Assembly (NCBI GenBank): GCA_041687695.1 | Contig: JAWLBL010000006.1 | Coordinates: 32,001 to 96,000, forward strand | DNA from: Myxococcota bacterium | GTDB lineage: Bacteria > Myxococcota_A > UBA9042 > PHBI01 > JAWLBL01 | Direction: 5' to 3' | Length of the DNA: 64,000 bases | In this document: positions 41,029-62,666 of the stretch, one piece after another | How positions within the stretch are numbered: the stretch's first letter is position 1 | Layout of the letters: every line of letters begins with the position of its first letter | Position numbers and translations under genes: made by a program | Notes under the pieces: model-generated | Databases searched by the model: none | What the model was told of the DNA's origin: nothing | The model's input: only the letters and a program-made list of their open reading frames with translations

Positions 41029-41032
<4 letters not shown>
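40055..41032 (-). CDS. Succinylglutamate desuccinylase / aspartoacylase (M14-like) family protein
   Basis: [28 protein letters not shown]. The TTG start overlaps the upstream TGA. Confidence 0.88.
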
Positions 41033-42585
<1,553 letters not shown>

Positions 42586-42700
42586 GTCTGCGGGAACCTC
42601 GAAGGGGGCGCGTGGTGCGTCGAGCATGACCACGGCGCCGCGGCCGCGGCAAGGCCCGGGCCGGGGGAGCGGGTTACGCGGGTGGGATGGGGGATGAGGA

Positions 42701-42777
42701 GGGGCAGGGGAGAGGGGCAGGGGAGAGGGGCAGGGGAGAGGGGCAGGGGAGAGGGGCAGGGGAGAGGGGCAGGGGAG
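42701..42777 (+). repeat. (GGGGCAGGGGAGA)x6 G-rich tandem repeat at the outer edge of element 1
   Basis: Exact 13-bp period read directly. Confidence 0.95.
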
Positions 42778-42782
42778 CGGGA

Positions 42783-43073
42783 GAGGCGCGGTAGCCTCCG
42801 CTTCGGCCGGCCTCAATGGCTTTGTCCCCCTTGGCCGGCCTGGTCGGCCGGCCAATTCCTCGCGGACGACAAAGCCATTGACCCCGGCCTACGCTGCGGC
42901 TGGGGGGCTGATATCGGCCCGGAAGGGGGCCTTCCGGGCCGCTTCGCGTCCCGGCGCGGGCACTGGCGGCGGGTGCTGGGGAGGGCGGCTGTTCGGGGCT
43001 TCCAGGGGGCCGGAGCGGTGCTTGGTCGCGTGGGCCTGGGGTGGGGTGTAGAATTAAACAACCGTGTGATTAG
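42783..43073. other. Conserved structured arm (copy 1 left); possible ncRNA or ssDNA hairpin
   Basis: Stems 42813-42826/42868-42881, TTGGCCGGCC/GGCCGGCCAA and CGGCCCGGAAGG/CCTTCCGGGCCG. Confidence 0.7.
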
Positions 43074-43338
43074 TCGTCCCGGGGCGGAAGCTGGCCGTCG
43101 TCCCGGGGCGGAAGGGCGCGGGTCGTCGTCCCGGGGCGCGAGCGCGCGGGTCGTCGTCCCGGGGCGGGAGCGCGCGGGTCGTCGTCCCGGGGCGCGAGCG
43201 CGCGGGTCGTCGTCCCGGGGCGGAAGCGCGCGGGCCGTCGTCCCGGGGCGGAAGGGCGCGGGTCGTCGTCCCGGGGCGCGAGCGCGCGGGTCGTCGTCCC
43301 GGGGCGGGAGCGCGCGGGTCGTCGTCCCGGGGCGGAGG
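43073..43338 (-). repeat. Array A: 10 units of the CTTCCGCCCCGGGACGACGAC-type motif, 28-bp period
   Basis: CCCGGGG cores at 43078, 43102, 43130, 43158, 43186, 43214, 43242, 43270, 43298, 43326. Confidence 0.95.
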
Positions 43339-44619
43339 TCACCCACGAGCTGCTCGCCCGGACTGAAGGTCGGCGCTTCCGTCCCGGGGCGGAACGGACC
43401 CGGCCCGCCGTTCGCCGATCTTCCGCGCGACGACGCGAGCCCCCAGCTCCTGGCGGGCGATGAGCAGGTTGTGGGCCTGACAGACGACCCGGATGTTGTC
43501 GACCGAGTGAGCGCCGCCCCTGGCGAAGGCCTCATCGTGGTGCAGCTCCAGCCGGCGCGTCTCGGTGCACCGCCCTCCCGGGCCCTCATAGGTGCACCGC
43601 AGCCCGTCCCGCTCGACCACGGCCCGCTTCACCTCGGCCGGGATGGCACGGCTGCGTTCCGTCACCTCGGCCACCGGCTCGCTCGCCGCGGCCTCGACCG
43701 ACTCGCCGGCCATGGCCAGCCTCTCGGTCGACTCATCGGCCATGGCCGCGCTCTCGACCGACTCTCCGGCCACGGCCACGCTCTCGGCCGACTCGCCGGC
43801 CACGGCCACGCTCTCGGCCGACTCGCCGGCCACGGCCACGCTCTCGGCCGGCTGGGGCGCCTTCACGACGACCTTCTTCACCCGCCGCTTGGCCCCGATC
43901 CCGAACCGCTGCTTCTTCTTCGCGGCCAGGAAGACGTCCAGGGCCATCTCCAACAAGGCCTCGTAGTCCCCGGACGCGACCTGATGGCCCGCCAGCGCCA
44001 TCGCCTCCTCGAGCTTGGCCGCTACCCGCGCGCCCACTGTCACCTGGACCCGGTACCGGGTCTCTGACAGCGGCTCGACCCGGTGCTTCGGCTTCGGCTG
44101 CTCCAGCGTCAGCTCGGCCACCTCCCGCGGTGCGCCCCGCTTCGCCGCCTCGACCCGCGCTCCGCCCCGGGACGGCGGCAACCGGAACACCCGCGCCGGC
44201 ACGTCCGGCCGCGGCGACCACTTGGCTACGAGCTCGGCCAGCTCGCGCTTGCTCTTCCCGGCCGCCTCGGCCAGCCGCTCGCCGGCGTCCTCGTCGCTCA
44301 GGTGAGGTCCGATGACCCGCACCCCGCTCAGGCTCAGCCGTCCGTCGGCCAACATGGCGCCCATCTCGGGCCACCGCCGCACCCACCCGACGGCCTTCAC
44401 ATAGTTGTAGGCCTTGTCCTCACCAAAGCCCCACCGCGTCCGGCACCACTCGAACAGCGACGGGCTGCCGTCCCGAAGGTGAAGCTCCCTGGCCTCGACC
44501 TCGGCCAGATGGACGACCAGGTTGGCCGTCGTCCGCCGCTCCAGATCCACCAGCTCACCGACCCGCCCCAGCAGCCCCTCGTCGGACAACTTCCCCAGCA
44601 ACTCCAAGCCCTTGCTCAT
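43339..44619 (-). CDS. HNH endonuclease with DUF222-like N-terminal region, 426 aa
   Basis: GGGAGG RBS. N-term LVVHLAEVEARELHL...SLFEWC; C-term RAIPAEVKRAVVERDG.RC....C...LELHH......GG....N....C..HN. Confidence 0.9.
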   Translation of the reverse strand: MSKGLELLGKLSDEGLLGRVGELVDLERRTTANLVVHLAEVEARELHLRDGSPSLFEWCRTRWGFGEDKAYNYVKAVGWVRRWPEMGAMLADGRLSLSGVRVIGPHLSDEDAGERLAEAAGKSKRELAELVAKWSPRPDVPARVFRLPPSRGGARVEAAKRGAPREVAELTLEQPKPKHRVEPLSETRYRVQVTVGARVAAKLEEAMALAGHQVASGDYEALLEMALDVFLAAKKKQRFGIGAKRRVKKVVVKAPQPAESVAVAGESAESVAVAGESAESVAVAGESVESAAMADESTERLAMAGESVEAAASEPVAEVTERSRAIPAEVKRAVVERDGLRCTYEGPGGRCTETRRLELHHDEAFARGGAHSVDNIRVVCQAHNLLIARQELGARVVARKIGERRAGSVPPRDGSADLQSGRAARG

Positions 44620-44646
44620 CCCGCAGCCCTCCCAATCGAGGCCTGC

Positions 44647-44655
44647 AGCATAGCA
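44647..44655 (-). promoter_or_regulatory. Putative extended -10 promoter TGcTATGCT of HNH copy 1
   Basis: Same position in both copies (TGtTATGCT at 61059-61067), ~27 nt before ATG. Confidence 0.5.
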
Positions 44656-44874
44656 CGGGGGTCCCAATCCCCTCGGAGCACCCCCTGGACGGCCGTTCAG
44701 GCCTCTCGGACGACCCGCGACGACCCTCACCCCTGATCAGCGCGTTGTGGAGCCTGGAAGAGGCCTCCCAGCCCCTCCACCTGGCCGACCGCGGACTTCC
44801 AAAATCGGGCCCCCAAAACCCGTCAACAACTATTCGCCGTCTCGACCCGTCCACATGTCGATTTCTCGTCCCGA

Positions 44875-45707
44875 CTTCCGCCCCGGGACGACGACCCGCC
44901 CCGGGACGACGACCGGCGCGCTTCCGCCCCGGGACGACGACCGGCGCGCTTCCGCCCCGGGACGACGACCGACTTCCGCCCGGGACGACGACCGACTTCC
45001 GCCCCGGGACGACGAGCGACTTCCGCCCCGGGACGACGAGCGACTTCCGCCCCGGGACGACGAGCGACTTCCGCCCCGGGACGACGAGCGACTTCCGCCC
45101 CGGGACGACGACCCGCGCTTCCGCCCCGGGACGACTGCTGGGTTCCGCCCCGGGACGACGACCGGCGCGCTTCCGCCCCGGGACGACGACCGGCGCGATT
45201 CCGCCCCGGGACGACGACCGGCGCGATTCCGCCCCGGGACGACGACCACCGCGCTTGCGCCCCGGGACGACGACCGACTTCCGCCCCGGGACGACGACCG
45301 GCAGGCTTCCGCCCCGGGATGACGACCGACTTCCGCCCCGGGACGACGACCGGCGCGCTTACGCCCCGGGACGACGACCCGCGCTTCCGCCCCGGGACGA
45401 CGACAGGCAGGCTTACGCCCCGGGACGACGACCCGCGATTCCGCCCCGGGACGACGACCCGCGATTCCGCCCCGGGACGACGACCGGCGCGCTTACGCCC
45501 CGGGACGACGACCCGCGCTTCCGCCCCGGGACGACGACCGGCAGGCTTCCGCCCCGGGACGACGACCGACTTCCGCCCCGGGACGACGACCGACTTCCGC
45601 CCCGGGACGACGACCGACTTCCGCCCCGGGACGACGAGCGACTTCCGCCCCGGGACGACGAGCGACTTCCGCCCCGGGACGACGAGCGACTTCCGCCCCG
45701 GGACGAC
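44875..45707 (+). repeat. Array B: 33 units of CTTCCGCCCCGGGACGACGAC with short reused linkers
   Basis: 33 CCCGGG cores counted between 44881 and about 45700. Periods mostly 24, 26 or 28 bp. Confidence 0.95.
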
Positions 45708-45990
45708 TAATTGCGCGGCCGTTTAATTACCAACCCCACCCCAGGCCCAATCGACCAAGCACGACCAGCCGCTGGAACTCCCGCACACCCGCCTCCCCCC
45801 AGCACCCGCCGCCAGTGCCCGCGTCGGGACGCGAAGCGGCCCGGAAGGCCCCCTTCCGGGCCGATATTGGCCCCCCAGCCGTCCGCTACGGCCGGGGTCA
45901 AGGGCTTTGTCGTCCGCGAGGAATTGGCCGGCCGCCAGGTCGGCCAAGGGGGACAAAGCCCTTGATGCCGGCCGTAGCGGAGGCTACCGC
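45708..45990. other. Conserved structured arm (copy 1 right), inverted relative to the left arm
   Basis: Stems 45882-45895/45968-45981 and 45898-45911/45952-45965; followed by a C-rich tract to about 46075. Confidence 0.7.
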
Positions 45991-46107
45991 ACCCCCACCC
46001 ACCCACCCCCAACCCCCCCACCCACCCCCAACCCCCATCCCCCAACCCCGCCCACCCCCCAACCCACCGTGGCCCCCAACCGCCACTTGCGATAGCCTCC
46101 CCCCGCC

Positions 46108-47364
46108 ATGAACAAGCTGCTCGTCGCCATCGTCGTCGCCATCGTCCTCGCCTTCGCGTCCGTGTTCACCCTCGGCGGGGCGATGGCAGACGTGTACTGG
46201 GTGGGCGAGCTGTTCTTGCGGGCGCTGAAGATGATCATCGTCCCGCTGGTGGTCTTCTCGATGGTCAGCGGCATCGCCGGGCTCGGGGACGTGCGCAAGC
46301 TGGGGCGGCTGGGCGGCCGGACGGTCCTGTATTACGCGACGACGACGCTGCTGGCCGTGGTGCTGGGCGCGGTCGTGGTCAACCTGATGCAGCCCGGCGT
46401 GGGGATGGTGACGACCGGGCTCGAGGTGCCCGAGCGGCTGGCCGCCAAGGAGGACATCGGCCTCCCCGAGATCCTGATGGGCTTTCTGAGCGACAACATC
46501 GTCGCGTCGGCGGCCGAGATGCAGATGCTGCCGCTCATCGTCTTCAGCCTGGTCTTCGGCGGGGTGCTGACCACCATCGGCGACAAGGGCAAGCCGGTCA
46601 TCGCCTTCTTCGAGGGCGGCAACGAGGCGATGATGAAGATCGTCCACCTCGTCATGTGGCTGGCGCCCGTCGGCATCTTCGGCCTGGTCGCCGGACGCTT
46701 CGGCGTCGCCATCGACCAACTGGGCATGGAAGGGTTCTGGAACGAGCTGTCGGCCGTCGGCTCGTACATGCTGACCGTGCTCATCGGCCTGGCCATCCAC
46801 TCGCTGCTCGTCCTGCCGCTCATCCTGTGGGTGACGACGCGGCGGAGCCCGCTCCTGTACGCCCGCGGCGTCGGCAAGGCCCTGCTCACCGCGTTCTCGA
46901 CCGCCAGCTCGGCCGCCACGCTGCCGCTCACCCTCGAGGGCGTCGTCGAGGAGAACCGCGTCGACCCGCGCTCGGCGCGCTTCGTCATCCCGCTCGGCGC
47001 CACCATCAACATGGACGGCACGGCCCTGTACGAGGCGGTCGCCGTCATCTTCATCGCGCAGGCCCTCGGCGTCGACCTCAGCATCGGCCAGCAGATCCTC
47101 ATCGTCCTGACCGCCGCCCTCGCCGCCATCGGCGCCGCCGGCATCCCCGAGGCCGGCCTCGTCACCATGGTCATCGTCCTCAACGCCGTCGGTCTGCCGC
47201 TCGAGGGCGCCGGCCTCATCCTCTCGGTCGACTGGCTGCTCGACCGCTTCCGCACCGCCGTCAACGTCTGGGGTGACGCCGTCGGCGCCGGTGTCGTCGA
47301 GCGCTACGTCGATGGTGACCAGCCCGAGCGCCCCGAGCTGTCGGCCGCGGTCGGCGGCCGCTGA
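46108..47364 (+). CDS. Dicarboxylate/amino acid:cation symporter (DAACS, GltP-like)
   Basis: LKMIIVPLV, AFSTASSAATLP, GATINMDGT, GAAGIP, DWLLDRFRTAVNVWGD. Confidence 0.95.
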   Translation: MNKLLVAIVVAIVLAFASVFTLGGAMADVYWVGELFLRALKMIIVPLVVFSMVSGIAGLGDVRKLGRLGGRTVLYYATTTLLAVVLGAVVVNLMQPGVGMVTTGLEVPERLAAKEDIGLPEILMGFLSDNIVASAAEMQMLPLIVFSLVFGGVLTTIGDKGKPVIAFFEGGNEAMMKIVHLVMWLAPVGIFGLVAGRFGVAIDQLGMEGFWNELSAVGSYMLTVLIGLAIHSLLVLPLILWVTTRRSPLLYARGVGKALLTAFSTASSAATLPLTLEGVVEENRVDPRSARFVIPLGATINMDGTALYEAVAVIFIAQALGVDLSIGQQILIVLTAALAAIGAAGIPEAGLVTMVIVLNAVGLPLEGAGLILSVDWLLDRFRTAVNVWGDAVGAGVVERYVDGDQPERPELSAAVGGR

Positions 47365-59991: not shown

Positions 59992-60130
59992 GGGTTCCTC
60001 CGAGGTCGGCCCGCCAGGGGCGGCGCCGGTGCGTGGGTGGCGAAGGGGGTAGGACAAGAGGGAGCGCCGTCGGCGCGGGCCCTGCGACGCACGATGCGCG
60101 CCGGATATTCGCGCGAGTTGGGCGGTCGTG

Positions 60131-60194
60131 GGTCGTCGGGTCGTCGGGTCGTCGGGTCGTCGGGTCGTCGGGTCGTCGGGTCTTCGGGTCGTCG
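60131..60194 (+). repeat. (GGTCGTCG)x8 microsatellite outside element 2
   Basis: 8-bp period, one variant unit GGTCTTCG. Confidence 0.95.
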
Positions 60195-60280
60195 TTAAGG
60201 CTAGCTTGGAGGGGGGAGGGCGTCTAGTGGGGTGGGGGCGGGGGGGAGAGGTTGGGGGTGGGGGGGAGAGGGATTGGGGG

Positions 60281-60566
60281 GAGGCGCGGTAGCCTCCGCT
60301 TCGGCCGGCATCAAGGGCTTTGTCCCCCTTGGCCGGCCTGACGGCCGGCCAATTCCTCGCGGACGACAAAGCCCTTGACCCCGGCCTACGCTGCGGCTGG
60401 GTGGCTGATATCGGCCCGGAAGGGGGCCTTCCGGGCCGCTTCGCGTCCCGGCGCGGGCACTGGGCGGCGGGTGCTGGGGGAGGTTGGTGGTCGGGAGTTC
60501 CGGGGGGCGGGGCGGTGCTTGGTCGCGTGGGGCTAGGGTGAGGGGAATTAAACGCTTGTGTGATTA
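60281..60566. other. Conserved structured arm (copy 2 left)
   Basis: Near-identical to 42783-43073; stem 60311-60324/60365-60378; preceded by a G-rich tract at about 60208-60280. Confidence 0.7.
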
Positions 60567-60840
60567 GTCGTCCCCGAGGCGGGAGGGCCGGGGTCGTTGG
60601 TCCGGGGCGGAAGCGCGCGGGTCGTCGTCCCGGGGCGGAAGGGCGCGGGTCGTCGTTCCGGGGCGGAAGCGCGCAGGTCATCGTCCCGGGGCGGAAGGGC
60701 GCGGGTCGTCGTCCCGGGGCGGCAAGCGCGCGGGTCGTCGTCCCGGGGCGGGAGCGCGCGGGTCGTCGTCCCGGGGCGGCAAGCGCGCGGGTCGTCGTCC
60801 CGGGGCGGGAGCGCGCGGGTCGCCGTCCCGGGGCGGAAGT
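60567..60840 (-). repeat. Array C: 10 units, 28-29 bp period
   Basis: Cores at about 60572, 60601, 60629, 60657, 60685, 60713, 60742, 60770, 60799, 60827. Confidence 0.93.
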
Positions 60841-61094
60841 CGGGGACAAAAAACGACATCCGGTCGGGGCGAGGAGGCAAATAGTTGTTGACGGAATTTC
60901 AGGGGACGTTTCGGGGGACCCGCGGTCGGCTTGGAGGAGGGGCCGGGAGGCCTCTGGCAGGCTCTACAGCGCGCTGATCGGGGGTGAGGGTCGTCGCGAG
61001 TCGTTCGAGAGGCCTGAACGGCCGTCCAGGGGCTGCTCCGAGGGGATTGAGACCCCCGTGTTATGCTGCAGGCCTCGATTGGGAGGGGTGCGGG

Positions 61095-62261
61095 ATGAGC
61101 AAGGGCTTGGAGTTGCTGGGGAAGTTGTCCGACGAGCGGCTGCTGGGGCGGGTAGGTGAGCTGGTCGATCTGGAGCGGCGGACGACGGCCAACCTGGTCG
61201 TCCATCTGGCCGAGGTCGAGGCCAGGGAGCTGCACCTTCGGGACGGCAGCCCGTCGCTGTTCGAGTGGTGCCGGACGCGGTGGGGCTTTGGTGAGGACAA
61301 GGCCTACAACTACGTGAAGGCCGTCGGGTGGGTGCGGCGGTGGCCCGAGATGGGCGCCATGTTGGCCGACGGGCGGCTGAGCCTGAGCGGGGTGCGGGTC
61401 ATCGGACCTCACCTGAGCGACGAGGACGCCGGCGAGCGGCTGGCCGAGGCGGCCGGGAAGAGCAAGCGCGAGCTGGCCGAGCTCGTAGCCAAGTGGTCGC
61501 CGCGGCCGGACGTGCCGGCGCGGGTGTTCCGGTTGCCGCCGTCCCGGGGCGGAGCGCGGGCCGAGGCGCCGAAGCAGGCGAAGGGCGACGCGCAGGGGAC
61601 GACGGAGCTGACCTTGGAGCGTCCGAAGCCGCAGCATCGGGTCGAGCCGCTGTCAGAGACTCGGTATCGGGTCCAGGTGACCGTGGGCGCGCGGGTGGCG
61701 GCGAAGCTCGAGGAGGCGATGGCGCTGGCCGGTCACCAGGTCGCGTCGGGGGACTACGAGACCTTGTTGGAGATGGCGCTGGACGTCTTCCTGGCCGCCA
61801 AGAAGAAGCAGCGGTTCGGTCTCGGTGCCAAGCGGCGAGTGAAGAAGGCCGTCGCCAAGGCGCCCGAGTCGGCCGAGAGCGTGGCCATGGCCGGCGAGTC
61901 GGTCGAGGCCGCGGCGAGCGAGGCGGCAGTGGAGGTGACCGACCGCAGCCGTGCCATCCCGGCCGAGGTGAAGCGGGCCGTGGTCGAGCGGGACGGGCTG
62001 CGGTGCACCTACGAGGGCCCGGGAGGGCGGTGCACCGAGACGCGCCGGCTGGAGCTGCACCACGAGGAGGCGTTTGCCAGGGGCGGCGAGCACTCGGTCG
62101 ACAACCTTCGGGTCGTCTGTCAGGCCCACAACCTGCTCATCGCCCGGCAGGAGCTGGGGGCCGGGTTCATGGCCCGCAAGGTCGGAGCGCGCCGTTCGAG
62201 GGCGCTTCCGCCCCGGGGCGGAAGGGTCGACGGTCAGTCCGGGCGAGCAGCTCGTGGGTGA
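61095..62261 (+). CDS. HNH endonuclease with DUF222-like N-terminal region, 388 aa (paralogue of 43339-44619)
   Basis: Near-identical N-terminal ~150 aa and intact HNH/Zn motif. Confidence 0.9.
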   Translation: MSKGLELLGKLSDERLLGRVGELVDLERRTTANLVVHLAEVEARELHLRDGSPSLFEWCRTRWGFGEDKAYNYVKAVGWVRRWPEMGAMLADGRLSLSGVRVIGPHLSDEDAGERLAEAAGKSKRELAELVAKWSPRPDVPARVFRLPPSRGGARAEAPKQAKGDAQGTTELTLERPKPQHRVEPLSETRYRVQVTVGARVAAKLEEAMALAGHQVASGDYETLLEMALDVFLAAKKKQRFGLGAKRRVKKAVAKAPESAESVAMAGESVEAAASEAAVEVTDRSRAIPAEVKRAVVERDGLRCTYEGPGGRCTETRRLELHHEEAFARGGEHSVDNLRVVCQAHNLLIARQELGAGFMARKVGARRSRALPPRGGRVDGQSGRAARG

Positions 62262-62518
62262 CCTCCGCCCCGGGACGACGACCCGCGCGCTTCCGCCCCG
62301 GGACGACGACCTGGGCTTCCGCCCCGGGACGACGACCTGGGCTTCCGCCCCGGGACCAACGACCCGCGCGCTTCCGCCCCGGGACGACGAGCAGCGCTTC
62401 CGCCCCGGGACGACGAACAGCGCTTCCGCCCCGGGACGACGACCTGGGCTTCCGTCCCGGGACGACGACCAGCGCGCTTCCGCCCCGGGACGACGACCGG
62501 CGCGCTTCCGCCCCGGGA
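62262..62518 (+). repeat. Array D: 10 units, 26-29 bp period
   Basis: Cores at about 62268, 62296, 62322, 62348, 62377, 62403, 62429, 62455, 62483, 62511. The first unit abuts the HNH stop codon. Confidence 0.93.
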
Positions 62519-62634
62519 TTACTGATTGCACGAGCGTTTAATTGCCGTCCACTGCCCGACTGCGCGACCAAGCACGCCCCGTCGCTGGAACTCCCGACCA
62601 GCCACCTCGCCCAGCACTCGCCGCCCAGTGCCCG

Positions 62635-62666
62635 CGCCTGTCCGCCTGTCCGCCTGTCCGCCTGTC
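62635..62666 (+). repeat. (CGCCTGTC)x4 at the truncation point of the right arm of element 2
   Basis: Four exact 8-bp units. Confidence 0.9.

Follow-up and report, generated by a model that had tools for sequence, protein, structure and literature searches.

What kind of unit is an HNH-nuclease gene that sits between inverted repeat arrays and structured arms? The window, a stretch of 64,000 nucleotides from a Myxococcota bacterium, holds two loci of this layout (locus 1 and locus 2). We favor the reading, at a probability of roughly 55%, that they are copies of a selfish, transposase-free, protein-guided nuclease cassette that marks its own ends, persists and spreads through nicking and host recombination, and is expressed from a wrap- or loop-gated promoter. 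The minimal unit would consist of an 18-bp palindrome, a leader with -35 and -10 elements about 167 bp apart, the gene and a second palindrome. This anatomy recurs across phyla.

Two loci, 22 copies and a three-domain protein

The following features define the gene at the two loci:
43339–44619, minus strand: HTH-RHH-HNH gene of locus 1, 426 amino acids
43685–43853: 30-bp in-frame repeats in the linker of the locus 1 gene
44162–44176: one array-type site within the locus 1 gene
61095–62261, plus strand: HTH-RHH-HNH gene of locus 2, 388 amino acids
61538–61552: one array-type site within the locus 2 gene

As the initial annotation had noticed, the two proteins are near-identical N-terminally (1 difference in the first 155 residues) and both keep an intact C..C/HH/N/C..HN motif. 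Neither locus has space for a further gene. The element had been described as present twice, but the genome search gives 22 gene copies. They are scattered, divergent and located at unrelated sites, and 21 have an intact frame and catalytic motif. These 21 copies are under purifying selection, with dN/dS of 0.11–0.18 in the 15 closest pairs and a median of 0.23 over 210 pairs. Leaders co-diverge with genes (Mantel 0.61, p 0.001), as do arms (Mantel 0.33, p 0.02), and sequence comparison shows that the copies are mosaic among themselves. The two window copies have an identity of 83.5% in the leader and of 92–94% in the RHH and HNH parts. Because they differ, and because other NCBI records hold proteins 91% and 93% identical to the two window proteins, duplication by assembly artefact, a possibility raised earlier, is unlikely. 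The closest pair of copies reaches a best core identity of 95.9%. Since near-identical copies are absent and proteins 89–99% identical to the copies occur in other records, much of the set may consist of long-standing residents passed on vertically. The position between divergent host genes holds at both window loci, but not as a general rule: a rough ORF call gives 5 divergent, 7 tandem and 3 convergent contexts, and 7 contig ends.

The family protein is built of a ParB-type HTH, a ribbon-helix-helix (RHH) and an HNH domain. In the window proteins Pfam matches no domain but HNH, and a sequence search of solved structures returned weak matches alone. In structure comparisons of the model, where all Z-scores stay below 8, the N-terminal domain resembles ParB/KorB/Spo0J DNA-binding domains (Z 6.2–7.2, rmsd 2.9–7.7 over 91–118 residues), the middle domain RHH proteins including pCXC100 ParB and TraM (Z 4.1–4.8), and the C-terminal domain HNH nucleases including a nicking enzyme (Z 6.4–7.7). 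Foldseek gave no match at E≤0.001. DUF222 (PF02720) is matched by neither window protein at E≤0.1 and by 7 of 48 relatives, weakly (best E 3.3e-5); judged by sequence, the family would be at most distant kin of DUF222. The NCBIfam model guided_IscB scores 26–28 bits against a cut-off of 175 and covers the HNH stretch alone. Structural overlap with IscB is likewise confined to HNH (57–58 residues).

Palindrome, arrays and a putative split promoter

The repeats around the gene are arranged as follows:
43052–43073, plus strand: AT-rich AATTA..ATTAG box at the arm-array junction of locus 1
43073–43338, plus strand: downstream array of locus 1, made of 10 units derived from the palindrome, directly next to the stop codon
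44876–45707, minus strand: upstream array of locus 1, 33 units of 24–28 bp
45708–45729, minus strand: AATTA..TAATT box on the upstream side of locus 1
60546–60567, plus strand: AATTA..ATTAG box of locus 2
60567–60840, plus strand: upstream array of locus 2, 9 units and 1 degenerate unit
62263–62522, minus strand: downstream inverted array of locus 2, 10 units

A single 18-bp palindrome, multiplied locally, underlies the arrays. Inverted arrays flank the gene at both window loci, and in both the downstream one starts at most 1–3 bases from the stop codon, in agreement with the original description. The proposal that the repeats are tied to the HNH gene in a self-contained unit also holds: 24 of the 33 exact 16-bp palindromes in the genome are at gene copies, 8 at arm loci and 1 at a contig end, and none of these 33 is solo. 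In a second genome, G011, 27 of 31 palindrome matches are at elements. Relatives from several phyla carry the palindrome on both sides of the gene, most often as one copy at each end. In other phyla it was found upstream of 31/65 genes and downstream of 30/72, with 8 matches in 398 kb elsewhere, by a pattern derived from the same loci. The terminal single palindrome and the split -35/-10 leader, both overlooked in the initial annotation, are the most conserved features of the family.

One residue of the recognition helix of the HTH covaries with one base of the palindrome. An N or D residue goes with base T in 16/17 loci, and G, R or S with base G in 30/31; the changes amount to 4 independent pairs (3.7 in the same direction, 0 opposite, p 0.125). 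Fold and covariation strongly suggest that the ParB-type HTH reads the palindrome directly, and the protein is probably a dimer through its predicted RHH domain. Because of this ParB-type fold and helix-base covariation, the repeats are most likely binding sites of the element's own protein. Thus, of two roles suggested earlier for the arrays, protein binding gains support, whereas that of small-RNA templates does not: linkers are short and repeated within each array, and variable guide spacers are absent. Constant repeats with unique spacers, which characterize CRISPR- or TIGR-type guide arrays, were not observed.

Between the upstream array and the gene lies the leader:
44647–44655, minus strand: extended -10 (TGnTATGCT) of locus 1
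44653–44820, minus strand: 168-bp spacer from -35 to -10 of locus 1, fixed in length, with a purine/pyrimidine period of ~10.3 bp family-wide
44821–44826, minus strand: -35 hexamer TTGACG of locus 1
60888–60893, plus strand: -35 hexamer TTGACG of locus 2
60894–61061, plus strand: 168-bp spacer of locus 2, RNA fold equal to shuffles (z 0.03)
61059–61067, plus strand: extended -10 (TGnTATGCT) of locus 2

A consensus -35 and an extended -10 are spaced by 164–169 (or 176–181) bp, that is ~167 bp versus the usual 17. The spacing is 168–169 in 21/21 leader-bearing copies of the genome and occurs at no other genome site (background 0.1 per distance). It is 165–169 in 54 of the 61 loci with both motifs; under the first pattern the motif pair is missing in 41/102 loci, many of which have a short leader. 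It is 164–168 or 176 in 15/26 held-out loci, and 177–181 in 9/9 loci of G011. There are two spacing classes about one helical turn apart, of ~16 or 17 helical turns in all. Within the spacer, a period of 10.3–10.4 bp keeps its phase across divergent spacers, both in a set of 23 (p 0.0025) and in one of 36 (p 0.001), with ancestry shared among relatives, and is detectable in the central part alone too; in 9 held-out spacers alone it is not significant (p 0.16). No spacer-deleted copy occurs among ~125 loci.

Other functions of the leader were considered. A structured RNA or an end-to-end hairpin found no support: on both strands the spacer folds like shuffles (mean z -0.2 to -1.2), and no locus-specific pairing stands out clearly between its ends. 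Period 3 is absent, which discards a coding frame, and no clear dyad symmetry was seen.

We infer that the leader is a wrap- or loop-gated promoter. Wrapping or looping of ~150 bp of spacer would allow -35 and -10 to meet on one RNA polymerase, and such gating could keep a toxic nuclease off unless a particular DNA topology or protein occupancy is reached. It is possible, though in our opinion doubtful, that the distal TTGACA is instead bound by another factor, or belongs to a recombination accessory region that a host protein wraps, the extended -10 alone driving the gene. Extended -10 promoters function without a -35, and short-leader relatives retain the -10 with the distal hexamer absent. 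On the other hand, TTGACA is the exact sigma-70 consensus hexamer and often follows an A-tract, it stands from the -10 at distances of the two helical classes, and no conserved -10 is present 17 bp past it. This question touches the promoter alone, and either answer is compatible with a selfish cassette. No description of such a split promoter, or of the element layout, was found in the main texts of the open-access papers searched.

Proposed spread of the cassette, and the hairpin arms

The family is patchy, being found in 12/31 relatives and, at E≤1e-25, in 15/251 genomes of the phylum. Three copies of one genome alone are similar inside the palindromes and different outside, as an edge of homology at the palindrome would have it; distant pairs have diverged on both sides. 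No target-site duplication was seen in the 14 loci with both palindromes, whose outer flanks share 0–6 bases, and no empty orthologous site was found. The proposed comparison at locus 1 had no purchase: the gene on its left has homologues in 7/17 genomes of the order; within 1.5 kb of these neither the transporter nor an HNH gene occurs, and thus there is no synteny for an empty-site test. The mobility of the cassette is thus putative. Plasmids contain no full-length relative and viral contigs give HNH-only matches, so that neither points to a vehicle.

An HNH domain alone cannot join DNA. In the cassette reading, it would nick or cut near bound palindromes, and host recombination and repair would then copy cassette DNA. 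Copies would thereby convert one another, deleted ones would be restored in the fashion of TnpB/IscB and, now and then, new insertions would arise; slippage would have grown the palindrome into arrays in this genome.

A rather unlikely alternative is a stress or defence nuclease useful to the host and autoregulated, the palindromes being operators for looping repression, the split promoter a sensor, and the rare duplications host-selected. Repressors commonly have an HTH/RHH build, with operators upstream and downstream of a gene. Purifying selection, the lack of identical copies of recent origin, the orthologue-like proteins of other records and the missing target duplication would all fit. 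This does not account well for up to 22 unrelated sites with the same non-coding frame, for the patchy spread or for gene-less derivatives; moreover, PADLOC (2023 library) matched 0/3 proteins to a known anti-phage system.

The outer parts of the loci are made of the following features:
42700–42781, plus strand: G-rich 13-bp tandem repeat just beyond the arm of locus 1, variable between copies
42790–42953, plus strand: downstream hairpin arm of locus 1, GGTAG start, two stems, compensatory changes
45825–45988, minus strand: upstream hairpin arm of locus 1, in the opposite orientation to 42790–42953
45989–46066, minus strand (that of the arm): G-rich low-complexity tract beyond the upstream arm of locus 1
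60130–60282, plus strand: 8-bp tandem repeat and G-rich tract beyond the arm of locus 2
60288–60450, plus strand: upstream hairpin arm of locus 2
62563–62638, minus strand: partial downstream arm of locus 2, inner part with the hairpin end missing, followed by an 8-bp tandem repeat

The G-rich tracts outside the arms are indeed present, and the arm folds far above chance (DNA z -7.7); the hairpin is 92.8% paired (slid controls 28–50%), with compensatory changes in 14/56 pairs. Inverted arms, reported for both loci, are complete at locus 1; at locus 2 ~75 bp of the inner part is left and the GGTAG-started hairpin is missing. The upstream arm is present in 19/19 genome copies with enough sequence, but the symmetric two-sided layout is complete in 7/22 copies alone. 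Arm-array-arm loci devoid of the gene occur at three internal genome sites. The flanks of the arms in this genome are dissimilar to each other, and a metagenome scan with the arm gave one chance match. Arms had been proposed to define the ends. This fails for the family because most relatives have no long arms and those of G011, unrelated in sequence, lie inside the palindromes. Long hairpin arms are thus lineage-specific additions, which would fold as single strands.

The GTAG-tagged arms could also be ends of REP/TIR type that a host HUH transposase (RAYT) mobilizes in trans; the HNH cassette would then be cargo or, like IscB/TnpB in IS200/IS605, a retention nuclease. They begin sharply at GGTAG, show compensatory changes, and form dimers and head-to-tail duplications; the genome has 11 Y1_Tnp matches, and the layout is like that of REPtrons/TIRtrons as excerpted from PMC3733652. 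We regard this origin as improbable. Arms flank 0/11 Y1 genes, which speaks against resident RAYTs serving them, and several of these genes bear other repeat families (125–170 copies). In addition, free arms are few, and neither the armless, palindrome-bearing relatives nor the internal arms of G011 are expected.

Finally, an RNA-guided nuclease, with leader, arm or array transcribed as guide or scaffold like the omega-RNA of IscB, is very unlikely: the constant-length non-coding leader upstream of an HNH gene, the weak IscB match and the strongly structured arms recall such systems, but RNA guidance, part of the initial annotation, is unsupported because variable spacers are missing, no match near the Rfam gathering score exists in 42000–46500, the spacer folds like shuffles and the IscB match is HNH-only, while the model has no RuvC-like region and the palindrome covaries with a protein helix.

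Significance and comparison with known systems

Soil and sediment bacteria very commonly carry multicopy HNH genes of this build, labelled 'McrA' or 'hypothetical'. The cassette supplies a cognate site and, for it, a candidate code of one residue, along with defined ends and putative promoter halves at a fixed distance. A functional distal -35 would mean that DNA wrapping can build a promoter for bacterial RNA polymerase. A small nickase that recognizes an 18-bp site, as the protein may be, would also serve as a tool. More tentatively, the family might be a very large undescribed class of transposase-free mobile elements, with more than 10,000 protein clusters at 50% identity, a ParB-like nuclease that reads a re-codable 18-bp palindrome and a sigma-70 promoter formed only on nucleosome-like wrapping of ~150 bp around a protein; if true, the promoter architecture would be new, and the long-unexplained DUF222/13E12-type repeats would gain a mechanism. 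The layout hints at new ways for a gene to spread and to be switched on.

The REP13E12 repeats of mycobacteria are described, in the part of PMC13061034 considered, as gene-conversion hotspots (87 events) with no defined function. Like these DUF222-HNH genes, the cassettes are multicopy, dispersed helical-domain and HNH genes that lack a transposase, and their copies are mosaic too. Unlike them, the window proteins have no DUF222 match, and comparison by description found no terminal palindrome, arm or split promoter for REP13E12 in the literature. In REPtrons and TIRtrons, a RAYT or TIRYT is flanked by REPs or long inverted repeats (PMC3733652, in excerpt). In both, the nuclease gene stands between inverted, self-complementary repeats with a GTAG start, and the repeat also forms dimers and clusters devoid of the gene. 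However, the cassette nuclease is HNH rather than HUH/Y1, and 0/11 genomic Y1_Tnp matches are at elements. The cassette shows no genome-wide amplification of its repeat, its gene is multicopy, and its conserved end mark is a double-stranded palindrome, predicted to be read by an HTH. Within IS200/IS605 elements, IscB and TnpB plausibly serve retention by cutting vacated sites (10.1101/2023.03.14.532601, in part). The cassette is similarly a small element bearing an HNH nuclease, plausibly for retention, but has no RuvC, omega-RNA or TnpA, and targeting is apparently by protein readout.

ParB/parS, Noc/NBS and KorB share with the cassette the predicted N-terminal fold, a palindromic site of 16–18 bp and tandem site arrays, and the middle-domain fold is that of RHH centromere-binding proteins (pCXC100 ParB, TraM). 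In contrast to ParB/parS, the model has no ParB CTPase domain, the element no ParA partner gene, the HTH is fused to a nuclease, and the sites bracket their own gene. Free-standing HNH homing endonucleases also combine a site-specific DNA-binding domain with HNH, and spread by break-induced recombination. The cassette differs in being outside introns, inteins and phage, in its many ectopic copies, and in carrying its site at both ends, whereas a homing insertion destroys the site. Unlike classical DDE insertion sequences, it has neither a transposase nor a target-site duplication.

As for the leader, the gyrase motif spans 130 bp with a GC period of 10.75 bp (PMC6379681, in excerpt). The spacer resembles such gyrase or nucleosome wrapping signatures in its ~130–150 bp and its 10–11-bp period; it differs in a signal that is mainly purine/pyrimidine, at 10.3–10.4 bp, with no clear dyad. 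IS2, IS3, IS30 and IS110 build junction promoters from a separate -35 and -10, whereas in the cassette both promoter halves stand in order at one end.

Anatomy of the cassettes and of their copies

The two HNH-gene cassettes of the window are organized as follows.

42783-45990, locus 1: arm, array (33 units), leader, gene, inverted array (10 units), inverted arm
43339-44619, - strand: locus 1 gene, 426 aa
60281-62637, locus 2: arm, array (9 units and one degenerate), leader, gene, inverted array (10 units), partial second arm
61095-62261: locus 2 gene, 388 aa

The initial annotation gave both loci an identical layout, which holds for the complete locus 1 but not for locus 2, whose second arm is reduced to ~75 bp of the inner part. 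The near-identity that it noted over the N-terminal ~150 aa is borne out, with a single difference in the first 155 residues for 81% identity overall. In-frame tandem repeats of 21-30 bp (43685-43853 and equivalent linkers in other copies) lengthen the disordered RHH-HNH linker and vary from copy to copy. The neighboring host gene (41029-42627, - strand), labeled "ATP-grasp" in the initial annotation, has no Pfam match; homologs with 52-61% conservation are present in 7/17 genomes from the same order, and in two or more of these the next gene resembles the downstream neighbor here.

Rather than the two copies first reported, the host genome G000 (7.97 Mb, 73% GC) contains 22, at 51-100% identity to the locus 1 gene. 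All are intact with a full catalytic motif except one that lost its 5' end (21/22), and they are found in mixed host-gene contexts. The upstream arm is present in 19/19 copies with sufficient sequence, and the full downstream arm in 7/22. Arms start sharply at GGTAG, and the arm of the window loci has a folding z of -7.7 as single-stranded DNA. In a comparison of 41 arms, both partners are altered in 14/56 pairs and pairing is kept in 92.8% of cells, as compared to 28-50% in slid controls. Copy-specific tandem repeats occupy 21/39 outer arm flanks versus 66/600 control stretches. Exact 16-bp palindromes (n=33) are located at genes (24), arm loci (8) or a contig end (1). Arm-array-arm loci without a gene occur at three internal sites, one with extra head-to-tail units; there is one lone arm, the remaining free arms being at contig ends. 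Gene-less arm/array loci (C3:293018-295045, C7:201565-202473, C27:85546-86549 and C47:29732-30449), with composite units of two palindrome variants, are either deletion derivatives or empty sites. Three near-perfect palindromes stand apart from gene copies and arms at C42:42426-47329, two of them within repeated surroundings close to where the contig ends.

The only Pfam match of the protein is a sub-threshold HNH. The NCBIfam match to IscB is weak and confined to the HNH stretch, and the cassette was ruled out as an IscB. DUF222 was found in 7/48 aligned relatives. The predicted structure (pLDDT 82) has three domains.

Residues 30-138: similar to the DNA-binding domains of ParB, KorB and Spo0J (Z 6.2-7.2)
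Residues 190-245: similar to RHH proteins, e.g. pCXC100 ParB, TraM and NikR (Z 4.1-4.8)
Residues 278-358: similar to HNH nucleases, among them GVE2 and the Gme nicking enzyme (Z 6.4-7.7)

Since every Z-score of these model-based matches is below 8, the assignments are leads. The family comprises 10,557 clusters at 50% identity (E<=1e-30), and the nearest Atlas clusters are mostly from Myxococcota. Some relatives (P0040, P0054, P0061) have a C-terminal helical extension, and two members of the alignment match Pfam RuvA_C.

The palindrome and the split leader

The best 80 of 338 confirmed loci of relatives (Acidobacteriota, Armatimonadota and other phyla) were examined, most of which have no long arms. 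An 18-bp palindrome, of which the window array units are variants, was found upstream in 31/65 loci, mostly ~250 bp ahead of the start, directly past the HNH domain in 30/72, and on both sides in 13/58, against a background of 8 hits over 398 kb, for a pattern derived from the same loci in which it was counted. Held-out loci of the host phylum have their own palindrome variants at the same positions. The genome G011, which belongs to a different family, has nine copies with an upstream arm and eight with an inverted downstream arm; 27/31 of its exact palindromes are at elements. Because these arms are unrelated in sequence to those of G000 and are situated inside the palindromes, the arm-enclosed layout initially described is found in two lineages, but the common end mark is the palindrome. 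None of 14 loci showed a target duplication. Two bins assigned to different phyla (L050 and L073) have the same leader and protein, more likely by binning error than by transfer.

Half-site base 6 tracks one predicted recognition-helix residue (50 loci, omitting one with two unlike half-sites): N/D goes with T in 16/17 and G/R/S with G in 30/31. With the helix left out of tree construction, 3.7 of 4 independent pairs go in the same direction and none in the opposite one (p 0.125), so that the covariation is suggestive in this underpowered comparison.

Between the upstream palindrome and the gene, the leader contains a -35 of consensus sequence (TTGACA/G, in many cases preceded by an A-tract), followed by an extended -10. 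The latter is probably real, since in many relatives the ATG is 4-7 bases past it, as in leaderless transcripts. The two motifs are separated by 165-169 bp in 54/61 loci having both (of 102 examined, a few of them duplicates). All of the 21 G000 leaders have a distance of 168 or 169, which is found at no further site in that genome, for a background of 0.1 motif pairs per distance and only 6 sites at 16-18. It is 164-168 in 13 and 176 in 2 of 26 held-out loci, and 177-181 in 9/9 G011 leaders. The distances thus fall into two classes, offset by roughly one turn of the helix.

The spacer sequence is divergent (mean identity 38% among 38 leaders from outside G000), with no folding found, no clear end-to-end pairing and no period 3. 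A purine/pyrimidine periodicity of 10.3-10.4 bp is in phase across spacers at 12-14x the null (23 and 36 representatives, <50% identity), and is also present in the central part; in 9 held-out spacers alone the period is not significant (p 0.16) with a mean phase in agreement, and shared ancestry may contribute. By analogy, constancy of length combined with helical periodicity looks like protein-wrapped DNA. The gyrase motif spans 130 bp with a 10.75-bp GC period (PMC6379681), and an R/Y decamer is reported as a proposal for nucleosomes (PMC3691935).

It is possible, if doubtful, that the distal hexamer does not serve as half of a promoter. No joined form with 17-bp spacing was seen among the copies. 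One subgroup with short leaders retains the -10 but has no distal hexamer. This subgroup (L027, L028, L030, L033, L036, L057, L065, L066, L069) has a conserved CGGACC-like motif ~20 bases ahead of the -10, resembling the palindrome center or an activator site.

Evolution of the copies and a proposed mechanism

The closest pair is formed by the two window copies (95.9% over 278 core codons), and the 15 closest pairs have dN/dS values of 0.11-0.18. Divergence between leaders mirrors that between genes (Mantel 0.61), and divergence between arms does so weakly (0.33). Identity is uneven along the window copies (N-terminal domain 98-99%, leader 83.5%, RHH and HNH parts 92-94%), another G000 copy has an N-terminal domain nearest one subfamily and an RHH nearest the other, and identity runs reach the permutation floor in 7/210 pairs for 0.7 expected. 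Gene conversion is therefore the preferred reading of the N-terminal near-identity of the window proteins. Ten proteins in other NCBI records are 89-99.8% identical to single G000 copies; thus many copies are not very recent.

Our overall reading, to which we give a probability of about 0.55, is that of a self-marking nuclease cassette spread by site nicking and host repair, with split-promoter gating. The protein would bind its own palindromes, a strong inference, and its intact HNH would nick or cut near them; host repair would then copy cassette DNA. Together, these steps would account for conversion between copies, array expansion, edge tandem repeats, the scarcity of solitary palindromes and the selection acting on individual copies. 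The split promoter may gate a toxic gene through DNA topology. The cassette is putatively mobile; neither an empty site nor a vehicle was found, the closest genomes available being of the same order.

An autoregulated host nuclease is unlikely. Still less probable is movement of the arms by a RAYT with the cassette as cargo: G000 has 11 Y1_Tnp matches, none adjoining arms and several bearing their own repeat families. RNA guidance is very improbable, and a guide array and a classical IS were both rejected.

RAYT-like Y1 genes lie at C22:44011, C15:152243, C26:55485 and C54:488, each with its own flanking repeat family. Three RAYT-associated motifs occur 125-170 times in G000, and one is inserted within three HNH cassettes. 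A second Y1_Tnp group (C59, C40, C61, C48, C53), mostly on small contigs and with some truncated members, combines long extensions of the C-terminus with short inverted motifs at the ends.

Comparison with known systems

Overall, the element is real, widespread and uncharacterized, with a clear and testable anatomy. No description of a palindrome-bracketed cassette or of a split promoter was found in the open-access literature searched. REPtrons/TIRtrons have a similar layout, but their HUH enzyme is missing from the cassette (PMC3733652). REP13E12 is also multicopy, unexplained and conversion-prone (PMC13061034, PMC10589994), but going by the DUF222 matches the cassette would be a distant relative at best. 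TnpB/IscB retention (10.1101/2023.03.14.532601) offers a parallel for the proposed mechanism, from which the cassette would differ by its proposed protein readout.
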